Source of the DNA: a virus
Strand: one strand, 5' to 3'
UHGV virus genome: UHGV-0367640
DNA length: 26,496 bases
Shown: in pieces, positions 804 to 14,940 of the stretch
Layout: the number at the start of each line of letters is the position of its first letter
Position numbering within the stretch: the first letter of the stretch is position 1
Notes under the pieces: model-generated
What the model saw: only the letters and a program-made list of their open reading frames with translations
Databases searched by the model: none
Told to the model about the DNA's origin: nothing
Made by a program: the position numbers and the translations under genes

Positions 804-2003
804 ATGGTCGTGAGCGTTTTTATGTTTGACTTGACGTTTATTATCTTTATTTTATCTTCCATCCCTGTATTTTTTGTTTTTTGGATTGCCGGAAGGTTTA
901 AGAATGAATTAGTTGCAGACTCTTCTTTTGGATTGCGAGGTGATGACAATTTATCTTGCCTCAGGGGGTTGGCGGCTGTCATGGTCGCCCTTCACCATTC
1001 AGTATATATGTTCAATTATCTTTATCATGATAAATGGAGTATATTTTTGAATGATGGATTTGCGGCGAAGTCAAGCAACAATAGTTTATTGGCCATTGCA
1101 TATTTTGGCTCCATTCCAGTCATGATATTCTTTATGATTACAGGGTTTCTCTTCTTTAGAAAAATAATAAACAAACCAATAAACAATGCTGCAATATTTT
1201 TGTCGGCGCGAGTTAAGAGACTAATTCCAATGTATGCATTCATGGTGCTTTGCGTTGTTTGTGTTTCTGAATTAATTCGACCCAACGATAGCATTGGGAT
1301 TCACAACATTATTGTTGAAGTTGGCCGATATTTTACGTTTGGTATAATTGACCCTAATGGCCTTACACCTTCTATTCATGGATCTTTAATCGTTGGCGGG
1401 GTTATCTGGACTCTTGCATATGAGTGGGGTTTTTATATAATTTTACCATATATCTCTATGTTCGTAAAATCAATAAGAGATGCATGTTTTTCGGTAATAA
1501 TTATGCTTTTCTCGGTATTAATTGCTTACCGCCAAGAGCTTATCAGTGAAATGTTTGCCACTCTTCTCTTTTGCTTTATTGGTGGCTTTGTTGCAGCGCT
1601 AGCTTCTGGTTACCTAAAGAACAACGCTATCAAACAAGCCAATAGCGTAATGATGACAATTGTGTACCTTTTATCGCTTATTGCTGTCGCATACTGGCAG
1701 GACTTTAACATTTACAATGTTTACATAGTGATTCCGCTATTTTTGTTTTTTTTAAGTGCGTGTACTGGCTCCAAAGCTTTTCAAATTATAAACACCAAGT
1801 TCTTCAAGGTGGCGGGTTCTGTAAGTTACAGCATTTATTTGATGCATGGCTTAAGCATGGTAATGACCTTTAATTTCATTTCAAGCTCATTAAACTATAC
1901 TGAGTTTGCAGCAATATCTTTATCAATTTGTGCAATGATAAGTTGCTTAACTTACTTATACATTGAAAAACCCGCAATGAAAAAACAGTTTAAAAACAAT
2001 TAG
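804..2003 (+). CDS. Integral-membrane acyltransferase, acyltransferase-3 family (O-antigen/LPS O-acetyltransferase-like lysogenic conversion gene)
   Basis: 399-aa very hydrophobic multi-pass ORF with an N-proximal LRG-LAAVMVALHH motif typical of acyltransferase-3 enzymes; AT-rich by eye; convergent with the tail fiber assembly gene. Start uncertain: ATG 804 or ATG 822, no clear SD; a TATAAT at about 793-798 would favour a downstream start. Confidence 0.7.
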   Translation: MVVSVFMFDLTFIIFILSSIPVFFVFWIAGRFKNELVADSSFGLRGDDNLSCLRGLAAVMVALHHSVYMFNYLYHDKWSIFLNDGFAAKSSNNSLLAIAYFGSIPVMIFFMITGFLFFRKIINKPINNAAIFLSARVKRLIPMYAFMVLCVVCVSELIRPNDSIGIHNIIVEVGRYFTFGIIDPNGLTPSIHGSLIVGGVIWTLAYEWGFYIILPYISMFVKSIRDACFSVIIMLFSVLIAYRQELISEMFATLLFCFIGGFVAALASGYLKNNAIKQANSVMMTIVYLLSLIAVAYWQDFNIYNVYIVIPLFLFFLSACTGSKAFQIINTKFFKVAGSVSYSIYLMHGLSMVMTFNFISSSLNYTEFAAISLSICAMISCLTYLYIEKPAMKKQFKNN

Positions 2004-9204: not shown

Positions 9205-9791
9205 TAGCCGCCTCCCAGTAATGACGCCACGTTACCCGTAATGCTTTTCAGCAGTGAAGTATCTGGAGGCTTTGTGGTTTTGTTGCCGCTGTTCTGTACC
9301 GCCGACGTGCTGGCCCCTTCCTTCATGTTGGTTTTATCCGCGACGGTAATCTGCTGTGTCCGGGAGATAATGACCTCCCTCAGGGTGAGGACGGCGGACA
9401 GGACGTTTTCGGTTGTCTTGTCCGTCGTCACTTCCAGCGCCCGGATCAACATGTTGCTGTACAGCCGTTTACCGGTTACCACATCGAAGGGGATACGGCT
9501 TTCCTGCAGATCCAGTAGCTCCTGATACGTCTGCTGAGGACTCAGGCCGAGCAGGCTGGTAGCCGTCAGATTACTGGCAAAATCCAGCAATGCGCCGCCA
9601 CCGGCGAAACCAACCTCCATCACCACTTCTGACGGTTTTTTATAGGCATGATCAGCGACAGCGGCCCCGACCTCTACCGGATGCTCTGTTATTTCAAGCA
9701 TATCTGTATGCTTCTCTGAAATAACAACACTGGGAACAATCATTCCTATTTTTCTGCTCTGCTGATGAAAAAGTGTAGAGAGAATATCCAC
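9204..9791 (-). CDS. Tail protein downstream of tape measure
   Basis: 195-aa ORF with GTG start overlapping the tape measure TAG stop by 1 nt. Confidence 0.45.
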   Translation of the reverse strand: MDILSTLFHQQSRKIGMIVPSVVISEKHTDMLEITEHPVEVGAAVADHAYKKPSEVVMEVGFAGGGALLDFASNLTATSLLGLSPQQTYQELLDLQESRIPFDVVTGKRLYSNMLIRALEVTTDKTTENVLSAVLTLREVIISRTQQITVADKTNMKEGASTSAVQNSGNKTTKPPDTSLLKSITGNVASLLGGG

Positions 9792-11779
9792 TAACCCACC
9801 CTCACCTGATTACTTCGCATGACCTGAGCATTTGCAGACTGTTGCCGACGTGCAACCTCATTACCGACAGCGTGCGGATCTCCGCCACCGTAAATGTGGT
9901 AAGTATTTTGCTGGTTAACCTCTGTCATTTTGCCACTAATTCCCGCCACGGCAGCCTTATTAATCAGCTCTCGAGAATAGATATTTCTTCCATTTTCATG
10001 CTGGATAATGCTGCTCATCAATGCTGACATGGTTTGCGGATCGCTCATATTCAGGGCAGCCCGGGGATCCACTCCCAGTCGTTGCGATACAGCCCTGATA
10101 TACGCAGTTGTGTTGTTATTATCAGACGCAGGTGCCCAGGTAGAGATAATTTTCTCCACACTGTTTATTCCCCGTCCGGCGTACAGCATTAACTGACGAG
10201 CAAGAGCCCGTAATCCATCAAAAGCAGTTTCAAATCTGGCAAATCGCCCGCCCGGGCGTTCAAGAGAAGCCCCTGCCTGACCAGCAAAATTAAGGTTTCC
10301 CGGATTGTTATTCCGTTCTCCTCGTTTCGTAGCCTGTGCATATTGTTCCTGCTCATCATCACCAAACCAGCCGCGTACCGTCCGGCCCACACTGCGGGGA
10401 TCGAATCCCCAGTGCTCTTTAATCCAGTCGGCAGTACTGTTAGCGCTGTCTGTAACCATCGGCATCGCTGACGGATTTTCGCTGCCCTGATTAAGTATCT
10501 GTTTGCCGATGCTGACGGCATCAGCCCAGCGGCCATCTTTGATAGCGTTGAGCAGGTCGGCGATCATGTTCAGCATTTTGCTGAATTCGCCCATCTGGTC
10601 GATGAAGTTGCTGAAATCCCACTTCAGGGACCATGATTTGGGGTCAATATTGAGCAGTTTCGCCAGCGCTTTCACCAGTTCATTAACAGACCCTTTCAGG
10701 TCACGAACCATCTTCAGCGCGGCATCGACCTCCGGCTTCCACTTGCCCCAGTCAATCAGGCTGTCGCCGCCTTCCTTCCAGGTCTGATAGTCCTCCCACA
10801 GAAGGGCAATCCCCGCCGCCAGCGCGGTAATGAGGCCAATCGGCGACATCCAGAACGTACTGTTCAGAATGCGCAGCGCAATCGTCAGCGCGCCAAACAG
10901 CGAGATGAGCTCCCGCGTTTGCTTATCCAGCGATTGCCACCAGGTGATAAGGCTGGATGTTCCCTCAATTAGCCTGAAGAACAGCCGCCCGATGATGTCT
11001 CCGAGCGCCAGAATGCCTTTTATGGCTTTCGTCAGGGTCTGCTCGATGCGCGGGAAGTTATCGAGGATGTGGCGGCGCAGTGTGTCCAGCGAACCCGCCA
11101 GACCACCAGCAAGATTAGAGCCGATTTTGTCACGGGCCATGCCTGCCATCGCGCCGAACTCGCGCAGGGAGGTCATGAATTTGTTGGAGCTTCTGGCCGC
11201 CTCGTCAGCATTGAAGCCGATAGCTTTCGCCATTGCGCTGTACTGCCCGGAGAAATCACCCACACCCCGGCGCATCGCCATGAGGGTATTTTCGTCAATG
11301 CCCAGCATCTGCGCATACTGGTTAGCCCGGTAATACGGCATGCTGCTGAGCTTCTGTCCGACACCCGTAAAAATAGCGGCCATGTCGCGCATGTTGCCGC
11401 TGGCGTCACGGGTCTGTACGCCCAGGCGATTCAGAAAGCCTTCTGCACCGGGATTGTTACGAATAAACCGGGAGAGGCTTTCCAGAGAAGATCGCGCAGC
11501 GTCCACGCTGCCGCCAACCTGCGAAACCGCATAGCCAATAGACTGAATCCCCTGAACCGTCGCGCCGGTGCGCTGTGACGCCCAGTAGAGATTATCCAGA
11601 CCGGAGGCGATCTTGGCCGTGAAGGCCACCACGGACAGCGCAGCTCCTTCAACAGCCAGCCCCATTTTGATGACATTTGCAGTTGTACCGGCGAGGACAG
11701 AACCGAATTTTTTCGCGCCTGCATCATCCACACTGAAGCCAAGCGAGACAAGGAAATCTTTAATAGTTTCAGCGTTCAT
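9791..11779 (-). CDS. Tail tape measure protein
   Basis: Long Ala/Gly-rich ORF with membrane-like central segment, directly after the tail chaperone; start refined to ATG 11779 (GGAGAGAGG 3 nt upstream) rather than 11800. Confidence 0.8.
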   Translation of the reverse strand: MNAETIKDFLVSLGFSVDDAGAKKFGSVLAGTTANVIKMGLAVEGAALSVVAFTAKIASGLDNLYWASQRTGATVQGIQSIGYAVSQVGGSVDAARSSLESLSRFIRNNPGAEGFLNRLGVQTRDASGNMRDMAAIFTGVGQKLSSMPYYRANQYAQMLGIDENTLMAMRRGVGDFSGQYSAMAKAIGFNADEAARSSNKFMTSLREFGAMAGMARDKIGSNLAGGLAGSLDTLRRHILDNFPRIEQTLTKAIKGILALGDIIGRLFFRLIEGTSSLITWWQSLDKQTRELISLFGALTIALRILNSTFWMSPIGLITALAAGIALLWEDYQTWKEGGDSLIDWGKWKPEVDAALKMVRDLKGSVNELVKALAKLLNIDPKSWSLKWDFSNFIDQMGEFSKMLNMIADLLNAIKDGRWADAVSIGKQILNQGSENPSAMPMVTDSANSTADWIKEHWGFDPRSVGRTVRGWFGDDEQEQYAQATKRGERNNNPGNLNFAGQAGASLERPGGRFARFETAFDGLRALARQLMLYAGRGINSVEKIISTWAPASDNNNTTAYIRAVSQRLGVDPRAALNMSDPQTMSALMSSIIQHENGRNIYSRELINKAAVAGISGKMTEVNQQNTYHIYGGGDPHAVGNEVARRQQSANAQVMRSNQVRVG

Positions 11780-12011
11780 TATCCTCTCTCCATTTCTCAA
11801 TGCGCCGCTGGTTATCCGCTTTTACCGCCAGATGGTCATTCAAGAGAGCAATGTCATACAAATCGACAGAGCCATCTTTAAGTGCTGTATAAGGAATTAA
11901 CCCGGCGTCAACCGGATTGAGAAGGTAGGACAGCCCGTCCGGCAGGCTGTTAAACGTCAGCCCTGTTGCAGGCTCTGCGTCGTGCTGGTAAGGGGTGTAG
12001 GCAAAAAATTT
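11769..12011 (-). other. Programmed -1 frameshift extension of the tail assembly chaperone (G/GT-type)
   Basis: Slippery heptamer A_AAT_TTT in the zero frame at 12011..12005; the -1 frame stays open for about 78 codons and ends at TGA 11771..11769, overlapping the tape measure start. Confidence 0.6.
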
Positions 12012-12409
12012 CCCAGCGAATCGGCGACCACCCGCGCCACCATCTGCAGCATGGTTAGCAGGTCGATATCATCGAACATCAGCTGACCGCTGTTGAATAC
12101 CGGCGTCCATCCGTCCATGTGCTTACGTGACACTACGGCCAGGCAAGGATGAATAATCGCGTTGGTATCTTCTTCAGTCAGGGAAGACAGTTCCTCAGCG
12201 ATACGCGGGAGCATGGCTTCAAACACCGGTTTTAACTGCTCGAATTTCACGGTGTCGATTTTGCCGTCGGCAGGCAAACGGGAGCGAATGCTCCCGAAAT
12301 CTGACATCATTCCTGCCAGCACCGGCAGAAGTTTGCGGGTCACTTTCAGCTGATCAAAAACGCTGAGTTTTGCCGCGCGATATTTCACGCCTTTGATTTC
12401 GAATTCCAT
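11957..12409 (-). CDS. Tail assembly chaperone (zero-frame product)
   Basis: 150-aa ORF between tube and tape measure genes; ATG 12409; contains the slippery site near its 3' end. Confidence 0.7.
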   Translation of the reverse strand: MEFEIKGVKYRAAKLSVFDQLKVTRKLLPVLAGMMSDFGSIRSRLPADGKIDTVKFEQLKPVFEAMLPRIAEELSSLTEEDTNAIIHPCLAVVSRKHMDGWTPVFNSGQLMFDDIDLLTMLQMVARVVADSLGNFLPTPLTSTTQSLQQG

Positions 12410-12412
12410 GTA

Positions 12413-12853
12413 TTAAAACTCCCCGAGAACCTGGTCAATCTTGCCGCAGTCAAACACCCACGGCATCGTATTACCGGCCTTAGCGTTGGCGTTATCCGGC
12501 TGTTTCTGGAACGCCACGCTGCGCGCCGTGATGATGTCTCCGCTCACCTTGTTTCGGATCACAATGACGTTGTTCCCCCAGGTGGCAGAAGACTGGCTCT
12601 GTGCGTTATACGCCAGCGACAATTTTTTATTTGTCGGTGATGTCTTCAGAAGGTTAACGGTAATCGTCCCGCTTTTATCTGCATGGAGACTGTGCATCAC
12701 TTCGCCATCAGCACCGATGGTCATGGTGTTTTTAGGACCGCCCATCGCAACCACAATCCCCTCTTCAGAACTTGCCGAACCGTACCCGAGATCAATCGAA
12801 CCTGTCGGCCCGGTCAGCGTCGCAGTGACATCCATAAAAGAATAGGTAGACAT
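12413..12853 (-). CDS. Tail tube protein
   Basis: 146-aa ORF directly after the sheath gene; ATG 12853 with GGGG about 7 nt upstream. Confidence 0.7.
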   Translation of the reverse strand: MSTYSFMDVTATLTGPTGSIDLGYGSASSEEGIVVAMGGPKNTMTIGADGEVMHSLHADKSGTITVNLLKTSPTNKKLSLAYNAQSQSSATWGNNVIVIRNKVSGDIITARSVAFQKQPDNANAKAGNTMPWVFDCGKIDQVLGEF

Positions 12854-12863
12854 TCACTTCCCC

Positions 12864-14009
12864 TTAGCGAACAACGTTAATCTGTACGTCAGCGTAATGA
12901 ACCGCGCCTGCAAGTTTTATTGCAGCCTGAATCACCGGAGCCTTACGGGCTTCACGTTCTGATTGTGCCTGTTCATCCAGCGGCTGGGCGTATACGTAAT
13001 AACCTTTGGGCAGCGTGTCACCTGATGACAACTGGCCAAGGTCGCCACCGTTCCATACGCCCGGAGCAATCAGTCCATTCTGAACTGCCTGATCCAGTGA
13101 TTTTTCAACATTTGATAACAGTCGGGTAATACCGGCTTCAGTCTGGGGAACCTTCGTGGTGCTGGTATAAAGCAGGTTATAGAGGTTGGTCTGCACATAA
13201 TTCTGTAACCAGTCCAGGCCGTGGCGTTCATCAAAGAAATCGCCGTTAGCCATCACTCCCTGCTGGATGATAGCTGTATCATTCTGGTAGTACACGAACA
13301 CATTGCAGTTTTTTGCATCAAGTGCCGATGCCTGGCTGACTGTCAGTGTTTCATACCCGACACCCGGCTCCTGCTTAAACTTGAGCGTAATCGCGGTATT
13401 ACTGCCATTGAAATTAACCGTGAATGCCCGGCCAAATGCAGATAACGCAGCGTATTTATTACCCGATGAATACTGAATAAAACTGCGTGAATATCCGGCG
13501 GTTTTCAGTTTTGATGCCAAATCATCTCTGGATGCAGTCTGCAGGCATTTCTCATCGCTTGTCGTAATCGCCAGAATACGGCTTACAGAAGAGGATTCGA
13601 TCGCCGCAGCCACTTTCAGCCAGTCTGCATCCGGAATATCTGCATCGTCTGCAATCCCCAGCCCATACCATGAAGTATAATCAAGCATGGCATTCACAGC
13701 CTGCTCCAGCGTCTCAGGCGTGGCCTGTTCGCTGTCTCCATTCGTTTTCACCCAACGACCAACAAAAACCTCCTGAGGTTTCGGTGATTGTGAGAAAAAC
13801 ACCTGCGCAGCTTTATATTCTGGTGATTCCACGCCAAAATCTTTTCCAATATCTTCCGCGGCAGAATAACGACGAATGCGCTCACTTACCGGAATGATTG
13901 TGGACGGGCCGAGAATGAGTAATGCACCAAAATTTCGCCCTGATGCTGCACGCAGCGACATGATCACATCAACATTAACAACGTTTGATACAGGCAAGCC
14001 CTGTGCCAT
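12864..14009 (-). CDS. Contractile tail sheath protein
   Basis: 381-aa ORF preceding the tube gene; ATG 14009 with GGAG 9 nt upstream. Confidence 0.75.
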
Positions 14010-14012
14010 AGC

Positions 14013-14621
14013 TTAATCTCCGAAAAAGATGACTGGTGCTTCCACCAGCGATTTAATACCGTACTCGCGCACAACCTTCCGGCGCAGACGCACCGTCATA
14101 TCGTAGCGGCGGACCCATTGCTGATTAATAAGTTCAGGGAAGGGAGTCAGACCTGTGTAATCGCCAAGAGACAGCCCCAGCGCATTCAGTGCTGCATTGT
14201 TCTGCGGTACAGATATACCGTCACGAAACCGGGACGCATACACCATCCCCGCCGGTCCATAAAACGAAGCCATACACTCAATCATTTCATGCCGCCAGAG
14301 CTGAGAGCCATCATCGGTCTGTCTGGTGAATGCCGGGCTGTCATCACCTGACCATCCGATAACCCCAAACGCACACCAGTTCGTTTCAGCCGGTAGCAGT
14401 GGCGGCTGCTCTTTCTGCCAGCGCGGACGAACCATCCCGGCAGACAGACCGGAAACGTTACGCATCCACTGGCTTAACAGCCTGTCGAGCGCTTCGTCAT
14501 AATCCGGATCGCCACTGGTTGGTATCAGCCATCCGCACTCTGTGCTGGTGTTATTGCTCAACCGGAATTCCCCCATCAAACGGCAGCAACTCACAATGCG
14601 CCTGAACGAATCCGGCACCAT
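14013..14621 (-). CDS. Phage neck / tail completion protein (hypothetical)
   Basis: 202-aa ORF; start uncertain (ATG 14621 or ATG 14576), both overlap the upstream gene. Confidence 0.45.
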   Translation of the reverse strand: MVPDSFRRIVSCCRLMGEFRLSNNTSTECGWLIPTSGDPDYDEALDRLLSQWMRNVSGLSAGMVRPRWQKEQPPLLPAETNWCAFGVIGWSGDDSPAFTRQTDDGSQLWRHEMIECMASFYGPAGMVYASRFRDGISVPQNNAALNALGLSLGDYTGLTPFPELINQQWVRRYDMTVRLRRKVVREYGIKSLVEAPVIFFGD

Positions 14622-14940
14622 AAGCTGTATACGGGTCGACGAAGGTCACACGGTAATCACGGCCCTGATACGTCACGATATCGGCATCACGGCCAGTCTG
14701 GCCCTGCGTCAGTCGCTCAGTCGTCACAATCAGAATTGCACCACTGATTACCTGCCCGGCCTGCATACGACGGTTTTCCAGAGAGCGATCAACAGTAACG
14801 ACTCCGGCAAACTGCTTTTTAACTTCGCTGTCGCTGCCGATCCCGTCCTCATCCACCGTTTGCACACGGCGTGTTACCCACAAATTGAAGTCGCAAAAAT
14901 CGGGGTCAAAAAGCACATCTGTTACATCAAGAGTCGGCAT
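14551..14940 (-). CDS. Phage head-tail joining protein (hypothetical)
   Basis: 129-aa ORF, ATG 14940 with GAGGGA 5 nt upstream. Confidence 0.5.
   Translation of the reverse strand: MPTLDVTDVLFDPDFCDFNLWVTRRVQTVDEDGIGSDSEVKKQFAGVVTVDRSLENRRMQAGQVISGAILIVTTERLTQGQTGRDADIVTYQGRDYRVTFVDPYTAYGAGFVQAHCELLPFDGGIPVEQ

Follow-up and report, generated by a model that had tools for sequence, protein, structure and literature searches.

The question raised by this locus is whether a prophage's gene for the tail assembly chaperone encodes one protein or two. [quoted passage not shown] The tail is of the contractile type since a sheath gene is present (12864..14009, minus strand; Pfam DUF3383, E = 4.5e-100; phrog_205 'tail sheath', E = 8.7e-134). 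The tail tube gene (12413..12853, minus strand), which matches PF11681 (KPP10_Orf10, alias Phage_Tube_PhiTE; E = 4e-61), is located directly upstream of the chaperone ORF (11957..12409, minus strand). The latter encodes 150 amino acids (16.7 kDa), ends at TGA 11959..11957 and was identified by its matches to PF21822 (Phage_TAC_15; E = 3.1e-31, 109 bits over residues 6-138, with a curated gathering threshold of 22 bits) and to phrog_1688 'tail assembly chaperone' (E = 4.9e-65). The tape measure gene (9791..11779, minus strand) encodes 662 amino acids from ATG 11779 (phrog_2276 'tail length tape measure protein', E = 1.7e-282), and the equivalent ATG is annotated in the SEN34, YP3 and E. coli records. 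As in the G/GT arrangement, the tube (12853..12413), chaperone (12409..11957) and tape measure (11779..9791) genes are all on the same strand, with the chaperone gene placed between the other two. This arrangement is ordinary for tailed phages, and the public records of this phage group carry no frameshift annotation; in the records of SEN34-like phages the region is left unannotated as a gap of 177 nt.

[quoted passage not shown] The extended zero-frame reading is CTG GGA AAT TTT TTG CCT, in which AAT occupies positions 12010-12008, TTT positions 12007-12005 and TTG positions 12004-12002. Where a single heptamer had been given, the tract G_GGA_AAT_TTT_TTG (12002..12014, minus strand) holds three overlapping, in-register heptamers of the form X_XXY_YYZ, namely G_GGA_AAT (12014..12008), A_AAT_TTT and T_TTT_TTG (12008..12002). 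A survey of the 32 putative genes in the window identified 25 in-frame heptamers of this form, and the -1 ORF extended past the stop of the gene for these three only, by 188 nt; the next-longest -1 ORF downstream of a heptamer was 39 codons. The slip site is well beyond what is expected by chance.

In the -1 frame, no stop interrupts the stretch between a point 20 codons upstream of the slip and position 11769. The extension of the chaperone in this frame, a 'T-like' domain (11769..12002, minus strand), starts with GCC (12002..12000) as the first codon after the slip and consists of 77 codons followed by TGA 11771..11769, so that the open frame of about 78 codons overlapping the tape measure ATG, as described in the initial annotation, could be read directly from the sequence, as could the short product of 150 amino acids. 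Residues 1-136 of the chaperone joined to the extension give a long form of 213 amino acids (23.9 kDa), one residue shorter than the fusion of about 214 amino acids that had been anticipated. The tape measure ATG (11779..11777) sits within the final codons of the extension (AATGAACGCTGA), and the Shine-Dalgarno sequence of the tape measure gene, GGAGAGAGGA (11791..11782), is located within its coding sequence. Residues 39-77 of the -1 translation match PF21829 (DUF6889) with an E-value of 1.2e-20 and a score of 73.4 bits, as compared with a curated gathering threshold of 23.9 bits, and the extension also matches phrog_4364 (E = 1.9e-23). A profile search of the PDB sequences gave no match at E <= 1. 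Likewise, a search of the literature yielded no paper mentioning DUF6889 and none on the two chaperone products in this lineage, and the description of SEN34 makes no mention of a frameshift.

To quantify the conservation of these features, we used a comparison set of 75 loci from different enterobacterial species, in which the identity to the chaperone was about 48-90%. An extension of 78-84 codons in the -1 frame was kept in 72 of the 75 loci and a T TTT TTN run was present at the same codon in 74 of them, although these loci are kin and the counts do not represent independent events. Codon usage at the slip was nearly invariant, with AAT for Asn in 68/68, TTT for Phe in 71/71 and TTG for Leu in 65/66 cases, corresponding to synonymous codon diversities of 0.00, 0.00 and 0.03, respectively, as compared to 0.2-0.6 for the codons upstream. 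In one relative, L022, the T run is broken (AAT ATT TTG) and the extension is still intact. A pattern search alone recovered GGAAATTTTTTG in 70 of 80 IMG/VR loci, while the other 10 had no match to the loose search pattern.

The substitution pattern in the extension was also informative about the frame in use. In the segment located 3' of the zero-frame stop, the nucleotide diversities at the first, second and third codon positions of the -1 frame were 0.30, 0.26 and 0.58, i.e. the variation at third positions was about twice that at positions 1 and 2, which indicates coding selection on the -1 frame. For the first 10 codons past the slip, the amino acid identity was 0.59 in the -1 frame versus 0.34 in the zero frame, and the -1 translation of these codons includes an R that is 99% conserved and a P that is 97% conserved. 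Judging from these alignments, the codon directly past the T run, inside the chaperone ORF, is where protein-level conservation of the -1 frame sets in.

Sequences in which the two domains are joined without recoding were also identified. Seven distant proteins of 191-210 amino acids from high-GC bacteria (P0159, P0169, P0175, P0184, P0185, P0212 and P0245) contain a TAC_15-like N-terminal region and DUF6889 in a single ORF, and five of the seven passed the curated Pfam cut-off for Phage_TAC_15. They are collinear with the predicted 213-aa product, gapless at the junction and 28-35% identical to it over the full length. These proteins share the two-domain architecture and the junction DSLxxFLAY with the predicted product, but, unlike in the window, their coding sequence occupies one frame and contains no slippery run, and the order of the neighbouring genes is also different. 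At L167, for example, the junction reads GAC AGC CTC GCC CGC TTC CTG GCC TAC (DSLARFLAY), without a T run.

Taken on the sequence evidence, i.e. the DUF6889 domain, the lack of a start of its own, the conservation and the uninterrupted homologues, the frameshift of the G/GT type that was initially proposed upstream of the tape measure gene is well supported, and the chaperone gene would almost certainly yield a second, longer protein. We consider it probable that the slip occurs at U_UUU_UUG (12008..12002) and produces the 213-aa chaperone. According to this model, most ribosomes would synthesize the 150-aa chaperone and halt at TGA 11959..11957, and a minority would move one base back on the U6 run. 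The tRNA-Phe in the P site (UUU) and the tRNA-Leu in the A site (UUG) would then re-pair with UUU UUU, after which a further 77 codons would be read in the -1 frame, with GCC as the first, to give a protein of 213 amino acids (...DSLGNFL-AYTPYQ...) whose stop, TGA 11771..11769, is located just within the tape measure gene. The junction peptide expected from such a slip is ...VVADSLGNFLAYTPYQHDAEPATGLTFN.... A point against U_UUU_UUG is that a wobble mismatch is needed for the tRNA-Leu.

A real frameshift with its main slip at one of the upstream heptamers, A_AAT_TTT or G_GGA_AAT, seems rather unlikely to us, even though both are formally valid and in register. Such a slip would give the junction ...GNFFAYTP... 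and not ...GNFLAYTP..., and both versions have counterparts among the uninterrupted homologues: FF is found at the junction in some of these, such as P0159 (RFFTY), whereas the junction of P0169 is FLAY. Among 72 distinct sequences, 67 have GGA as the Gly codon of the tract (synonymous diversity 0.13), and for this reason the two upstream heptamers may also contribute to the shift. Against a main role for them, five relatives have GGC GGT, GGC AGT, GGT GAT or GGT AAT in front of TTT TTG or TTT TTT, and hence contain neither A_AAT_TTT nor G_GGA_AAT, but retain the T run and the full extension. Since the T run and the extension are kept in relatives that lack AAA, A_AAT_TTT is not the conserved element; the heptamer highlighted in the initial annotation is thus present and in register, but the conserved core of the slip tract, as far as can be judged from the alignments, is T_TTT_TTG. 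Furthermore, in E. coli, AAU shifts poorly in either the A or the P site as compared with AAG, which also counts against a slip at the upstream heptamers.

We also searched for elements that could stimulate a slip. A stable and conserved stem-loop or pseudoknot located 5-9 nt 3' of the heptamer was not observed: no stimulatory structure was obtained downstream by single-sequence folding of the window (z = -0.07 relative to shuffled sequences), and RNAalifold applied to 18 diverged relatives yielded only 2 invariant pairs and no covariation. The sole candidate for a Shine-Dalgarno-like stimulator upstream is GGGA, located 3 nt 5' of the T run. Judging by dnaX and RF2, this spacing is unsuited to the stimulation of -1 shifts.

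The missing RNA structure is only a weak objection to the frameshift, because phage P2 also lacks one. The gene for E/E+E' of P2 frameshifts at TTTTTTG without a downstream structure, as stated in a passage of PMC3091744 that cites Christie et al. 2002 and Xu et al. 2004. Like the prophage in the window, P2 is a contractile-tailed, temperate phage of enterobacteria in which the chaperone gene is located directly upstream of the tape measure gene and has TTTTTTG near its 3' end. The GenBank record of P2 reads GGT TTT TTG, which is the variant seen in some relatives of the window locus; this experimentally studied site is another argument against the upstream heptamers as the main slip site. In both cases the extension is about 55-77 amino acids long, ends in a conserved C-terminal domain of about 40 residues and has its stop within the start of the tape measure gene, with E' ending inside the tape measure ATG (AATGAGTAA) in a manner similar to the window. 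The two systems differ in that the short form of P2 is 91 amino acids (150 in the window), in that the stop follows the slip after 6 zero-frame codons (14 in the window), and in that the window has two extra in-register heptamers upstream. They also belong to different protein families: E+E' of P2 matches PF10109 and PF06528 (Phage_TAC_7 and Phage_P2_GpE), whereas the window proteins match PF21822 and PF21829 only (Phage_TAC_15 and DUF6889). Sequence homology to E/E+E' of P2 was rejected (hhalign probability 0.4%, E = 0.13).

The gpG/gpGT pair of lambda resembles the window in gene order, in a -1 shift, proposed for the window, towards the chaperone gene's end and in two products with a common N-terminus, but lambda is a siphovirus, the protein families are different and the slip occurs at G_GGA_AAG. 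The G_GGA_AAT heptamer of the window differs from the lambda site in its last base. The ratio of 30:1 is the value for lambda, not for the window. In lambda, the N domain has the tape measure protein as its partner, and the C domain the tube protein (passage of PMC5009743 summarising Levin et al. 1993 and Xu et al. 2004, 2013, 2014). By analogy with gpG/gpGT of lambda and gpE/gpE+E' of P2, the N-terminal domain shared by the two forms may form a coat around the tape measure protein. The C-terminal DUF6889 domain, the rarer of the two, may recruit the tube protein, such that assembly of the tail tube would be driven by keeping the long form at a constant, low proportion relative to the short one. 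The long form's C-terminal domain presumably binds the product of the tube gene at 12413..12853.

A third comparison is provided by the chaperone genes of Pakpunavirus/Vandenendeviridae and Andersonviridae, for which a -1 frameshift at GTTTTT has been proposed in the phage Adele paper (PMC12846349). These phages are also myoviruses with a tube protein in PF11681 (KPP10_Orf10) and a short chaperone gene whose 3' end carries a poly-T slip motif, annotations regularly present the ORF downstream wrongly, either as a hypothetical protein or as intergenic, and the frameshift was argued from an uninterrupted -1 frame across diverged genomes, much as here. They differ from the window in that they are lytic phages of Pseudomonas and Enterobacteria from other families with GTTTTT instead of T6G.

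The same 213-aa protein could in principle be produced if the RNA polymerase were to add an extra U on the T6 run and thereby generate an edited mRNA, but we regard transcriptional slippage as improbable at this site. The run is homopolymeric, with 6 T in the window and 7 T in five relatives, and in one public assembly with T7 there is a contiguous ORF of 213 amino acids (P0001), from which it follows that the addition of one T gives the fusion. However, according to Atkins et al. 2016 (PMC5009743), the bacterial RNA polymerase slips efficiently on runs of 9 A or T, and a tract below this length depends on a special hairpin in the nascent RNA. The structure needed in the nascent RNA was not seen in the folds of the window or of the 18 relatives, and the identical site in P2 is ascribed to translational frameshifting. 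A structure prediction for P0001, using an alignment of 50 rows, gave a mean pLDDT of 39 and a pTM of 0.25, and the model was unusable.

It is highly improbable that the extension is a separate small gene with a non-canonical start of its own, as implied by RefSeq, where a 54-aa protein that starts with CTG is annotated as "DUF6889 family protein" (formerly "NTP pyrophosphohydrolase"). Such a gene was called by PGAP at L004 (2468..2632, with the CTG start), and many stand-alone DUF6889 proteins are found among the database entries, but the lengths of these gene calls are scattered between 43 and 78 amino acids. No conserved ATG, GTG or TTG start was found in the -1 frame among 73 relatives, and the first candidate start in the window is a TTG at codon 49 of the extension, within the domain. 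Moreover, the conservation of the -1 protein starts at the slip, upstream of any candidate start, and DUF6889 is fused to the chaperone in the distant homologues. Based on the absence of a conserved start, the scattered lengths and the conservation from the slip onward, an independent start of DUF6889 was rejected and the 54-aa protein call in RefSeq is spurious. The idea that a chance open frame happens to lie beside a chance heptamer, with a long product that has no function, is effectively refuted by the match of the extension to a Pfam domain, by the conservation of frame, length and slip tract in about 72 of the 75 relatives, by the codon-position signature of selection and by the uniqueness of this site among the window's 25 in-frame heptamers.

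With translational frameshifting at the T run as the preferred reading, the main value of the result is in annotation. The frameshift assigns DUF6889 a likely role, that of C-terminal domain in the long form of the chaperone, and supplies the correct protein for proteomics and tail engineering, while the general understanding of phage tail assembly is unchanged.

The short and long forms may not be produced by recoding in all members of the family. At L167 and L168, a separate TAC_15 gene of 167 amino acids is located just upstream of the two-domain gene, suggesting that short and long forms are here made from two genes. A tentative and doubtful extension of this observation is that evolution has switched between a -1 frameshift (enterobacteria), two separate genes that are paralogues (L167, L168) and one fused gene (L169) in the Phage_TAC_15/DUF6889 family, and that the 13-nt G_GGA_AAT_TTT_TTG, as present in 67 of the 72 distinct relatives, acts as three tandem in-register slip sites that set the ratio of long to short forms without an RNA structure. 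If so, DUF6889 would gain a function as the 'T' domain of the chaperone, and these three genetic solutions would allow the stoichiometry requirement of tail chaperones to be tested. Relatives with a single ORF or with two genes provide a natural comparison for how the ratio of long to short chaperone is set. The SEN34-like (Brunovirus) prophages are common, with matches to the region in 316 of 5,426 complete E. coli genomes.

The chaperone gene lies on the minus strand, where an ORF at 12409..11957 encodes the short form of 150 aa (16.7 kDa), the size proposed in the initial annotation. Near the 3' end of this ORF the zero-frame codons read CTG GGA AAT TTT TTG CCT (AAT, 12010-12008; TTT, 12007-12005; TTG, 12004-12002), and the tract G GGA AAT TTT TTG contains three overlapping in-register X_XXY_YYZ heptamers: G_GGA_AAT, A_AAT_TTT (12011..12005) and T_TTT_TTG (12008..12002). 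The initial annotation had not described this overlap and had placed the slip at A_AAT_TTT, for which both position and register were borne out by the sequence, as was an open -1 frame from there to a TGA stop at 11771..11769 that overlaps the tape measure ATG (11779..11777). The long form was computed to be 213 aa (23.9 kDa) and not about 214 aa as had been suggested. As a control for chance, the 32 putative genes of the window were scanned for in-frame X_XXY_YYZ heptamers. The -1 ORF passes the gene's own stop for only three of the 25 heptamers found, all at the chaperone site and by 188 nt, and the second-longest -1 ORF following a heptamer has 39 codons.

Translated, the -1 frame gives hits to Pfam DUF6889 (E = 1.2e-20) and phrog_4364 (E = 1.9e-23) and thus encodes a recognised conserved peptide. 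To follow it across relatives, we gathered 80 loci representing different bacterial species, with chaperones about 48-90% identical to that of the window; 75 were usable, and L013 and L082 were among those left out because the chaperone ORF itself was broken or too distant. The -1 frame was open for 78-84 codons past the slip site in 72 of the 75 loci and usually terminated within the start of the next gene. Exceptions were an extension shortened to 39 codons (L042) and one running on for 258 codons (L068), both of which look like decaying prophages. In an alignment of 72 distinct extensions, the nucleotide diversity downstream of the zero-frame stop was 0.30, 0.26 and 0.58 for the three -1-frame codon positions, the pattern left by purifying selection on the -1 frame. 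The protein conservation begins at the first codon past the T run, still within the chaperone ORF, with the consensus ARTPRQRD just after the slip (R 99% and P 97% conserved), and over the first 10 post-slip codons the mean pairwise identity was 0.59 in the -1 frame versus 0.34 in the zero frame.

To examine which heptamer is used, we counted slip codons over 72 distinct sequences. Asn was encoded by AAT in 68 of 68 cases and Phe by TTT in 71 of 71 (synonymous diversity 0.00 for both), while Leu was encoded by TTG in 65 of 66 cases and once by TTA (0.03), with Phe replacing Leu in 6 sequences (TTT or TTC). The 12 codons preceding Gly are free to vary, with synonymous diversities of 0.2-0.6. 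The near-zero diversity at the slip codons indicates that T TTT TTN is constrained beyond the amino-acid need. GGA encodes this Gly in 67 of the 72 sequences, as might be expected if the ribosomes shifted chiefly on one of the two heptamers further upstream, the leading alternative as to the exact site. That placement is unlikely, however, since five relatives with GGC GGT TTT TTG, GGC AGT TTT TTG, GGT GAT TTT TTG or GGT AAT TTT TTT lack both A_AAT_TTT and G_GGA_AAT and yet retain the T run along with an extension of full length. Together with the codon constraint, this identifies T_TTT_TTG as the conserved element, so that the site originally named is present in the window but is not the part that is kept; given the retention of GGA, the two upstream heptamers may nevertheless add to the shift. 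The only relative with a broken T run yet a full-length extension is L022 (Salmonella enterica strain s1, CP191473.1), with GGA AAT ATT TTG and 79 intact codons; the break may be a recent prophage mutation, or shifting may persist on the remaining U UUG.

From these comparisons, a -1 ribosomal frameshift very probably takes place at the slip tract, whichever heptamer is used, and it is likely that the 213-aa protein arises principally by a shift at U_UUU_UUG. At this site, tRNA-Phe on UUU in the P site and tRNA-Leu on UUG in the A site would re-pair with UUU UUU, with GCC as the next codon, giving the junction ...GNFL-AYTP..., which fits the FLAY at the junction of P0169, an uninterrupted homologue. 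The same protein could be produced by transcriptional slippage on the T6 run, but this is very improbable, since the runs on which bacterial RNA polymerase is described as slipping efficiently are about 9 long, a nascent hairpin being required on shorter tracts (PMC5009743).

RefSeq instead treats the 3' part of the -1 extension as an independent small gene, and PGAP calls a 54-aa "DUF6889 family protein" from a CTG (2468..2632 in the relative L004, corresponding to 11933..11769, minus strand, in the window). However, no conserved ATG, GTG or TTG was found in the -1 frame of the aligned relatives, the stand-alone calls scatter in length from 43 to 78 aa, and the protein conservation starts upstream of every candidate start; the window has its first such codon, a TTG, at codon 49 of the extension, within the DUF6889 domain. 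A chance ORF is excluded by the DUF6889 match, the conservation across loci, the codon-position diversity and the heptamer scan. The frameshift is annotated in none of the related phage records, and the literature searched contained no mention of DUF6889 or of a frameshift in SEN34. The stand-alone entries, including those under the older name "NTP pyrophosphohydrolase", look like artefacts of an unrecognised frameshift. The frameshift reading of the initial annotation is thus well supported by the domain match, the conservation and the selection on the -1 frame; the phenomenon itself is very well known, and the value of the finding lies in annotation, its biological interest being modest.

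We also scanned the DUF6889 piece against 1.84 billion representative proteins. About 90% of the 111 matches were orphan calls of 40-90 aa, while 7 were proteins of 191-210 aa with a TAC_15-like N-terminal region and DUF6889 in a single ORF, 5 of which passed the curated Pfam cut-off for Phage_TAC_15. The predicted window product (...DSLGNFL AYTP...) aligned over its full length with all 7 at 28-35% identity and with no gap at the junction, and the two-domain protein therefore exists elsewhere as a normal gene product. Such loci occur in distant high-GC relatives (L167, 1989..3130; L168, 577..1718; L169, 1038..1664). In L167 (GC 0.67) the junction reads GAC AGC CTC GCC CGC TTC CTG GCC TAC (DSLARFLAY), without a slippery run. 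A separate 167-aa Phage_TAC_15 gene is located directly upstream of the long gene in L167 and L168, where a pair of genes, and not recoding, accounts for the two forms of the protein. The order of the neighbouring genes (Pam3_gp18, Dit_like, PF18352, E217_GP41, sheath initiator) differs from that in the window, nor was any tape measure gene called beside the long ORF in L167, L168 or L169. In the close relative L005 (1899..1912; Logan assembly SRR23924998), T7 replaces T6 (GGA AAT TTT TTT GCC), so that one uninterrupted 213-aa ORF (P0001) spans both Pfam domains. The extra T probably reflects a homopolymer error or a mutation, possibly one fixing the long form, and demonstrates only that the two frames join as expected. 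Another protein, P0149 (201 aa), in which NAD_binding_7 (residues 6-112) is joined to a DUF6889 segment sharing 98% identity with the extension in the window, probably represents a chimera created at a prophage boundary by gene calling or assembly. A PDB sequence search gave no match, and an AlphaFold2 model (pLDDT 39) was too poor for use.

In mechanism and layout, the locus is closest to P2 E/E+E'. With reference to Christie et al. 2002 and Xu et al. 2004, PMC3091744 places production of gpE+E' at TTTTTTG, the heptamer shared with this locus; the slip codons in the P2 GenBank record are GGT TTT TTG. No significant RNA structure was found downstream of the slip site in the window (z = -0.07), no conserved one among 18 diverged relatives, and no suitably spaced Shine-Dalgarno-like sequence was seen upstream; P2 is likewise without downstream structure (PMC3091744). 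In both phages the extension ends within the tape measure start (AATGAGTAA in P2, AATGAACGCTGA in the window). The domains differ, however, being Phage_TAC_7 and Phage_P2_GpE in P2 but Phage_TAC_15 and DUF6889 here, and with a profile comparison probability of 0.4% membership of the P2 family by sequence is ruled out. For lambda gpG/gpGT, tape measure binding has been assigned to the N domain and recruitment of the tube protein to the C domain (PMC5009743); by analogy, we infer that a similar division of labour may apply to this locus. A frameshift has been argued likewise for a GTTTTT site in the chaperone genes of Pakpunavirus and Andersonviridae, whose tube proteins belong to the same Pfam family as that of the window (PMC12846349).

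The tape measure Shine-Dalgarno sequence GGAGAGAGGA (11782..11791, minus strand) and ATG (within 11769..11779) sit in the last codons of the -1 extension, which encode E-K-W-R-E-D-N-E-R. This stretch is thus under two constraints, and it is nearly invariant among four aligned phages; the overlap could couple translation of the tape measure to translation upstream. Residues ~441-649 of the tape measure protein (9791..11779, minus strand), its C-terminal third, match PHROGs annotated as endolysin or tail injection transglycosylase, and RefSeq names a homologue "lytic transglycosylase"; the protein probably carries a cell-wall-degrading domain, to judge from these matches.

The window covers the late (morphogenesis) region of a contractile-tailed temperate phage. 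The minus-strand genes run from the large terminase, portal, head protease and neck proteins through the tail sheath (DUF3383), tail tube (PF11681), chaperone (PF21822 Phage_TAC_15, E = 3e-31; phrog_1688, E = 5e-65) and tape measure (phrog_2276, E = 2e-282) to the baseplate, tail fibre and fibre assembly protein. Identity over the region is 95% with Escherichia phages vB_EcoM-606R2 and relatives, 85% with Yersinia phage YP3 and 76% with Salmonella phage SEN34 (genus Brunovirus); among 5,426 complete E. coli genomes, 316 carry prophages that match it. The sole clear plus-strand gene (804..2003) follows the late genes, adjoining the tail fibre assembly gene, and encodes a 399-aa protein of O-acetyltransferase or O-antigen acetylase-like type (phrog_3333, E = 2e-44), likely a serotype-converting moron of the prophage. 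About 70 nt are shared by two minus-strand ORFs, 14013..14621 and 14551..14940; since the 202-aa ORF of this pair matches its PHROG from residue 23 onwards, its translation probably begins downstream of the first ATG.
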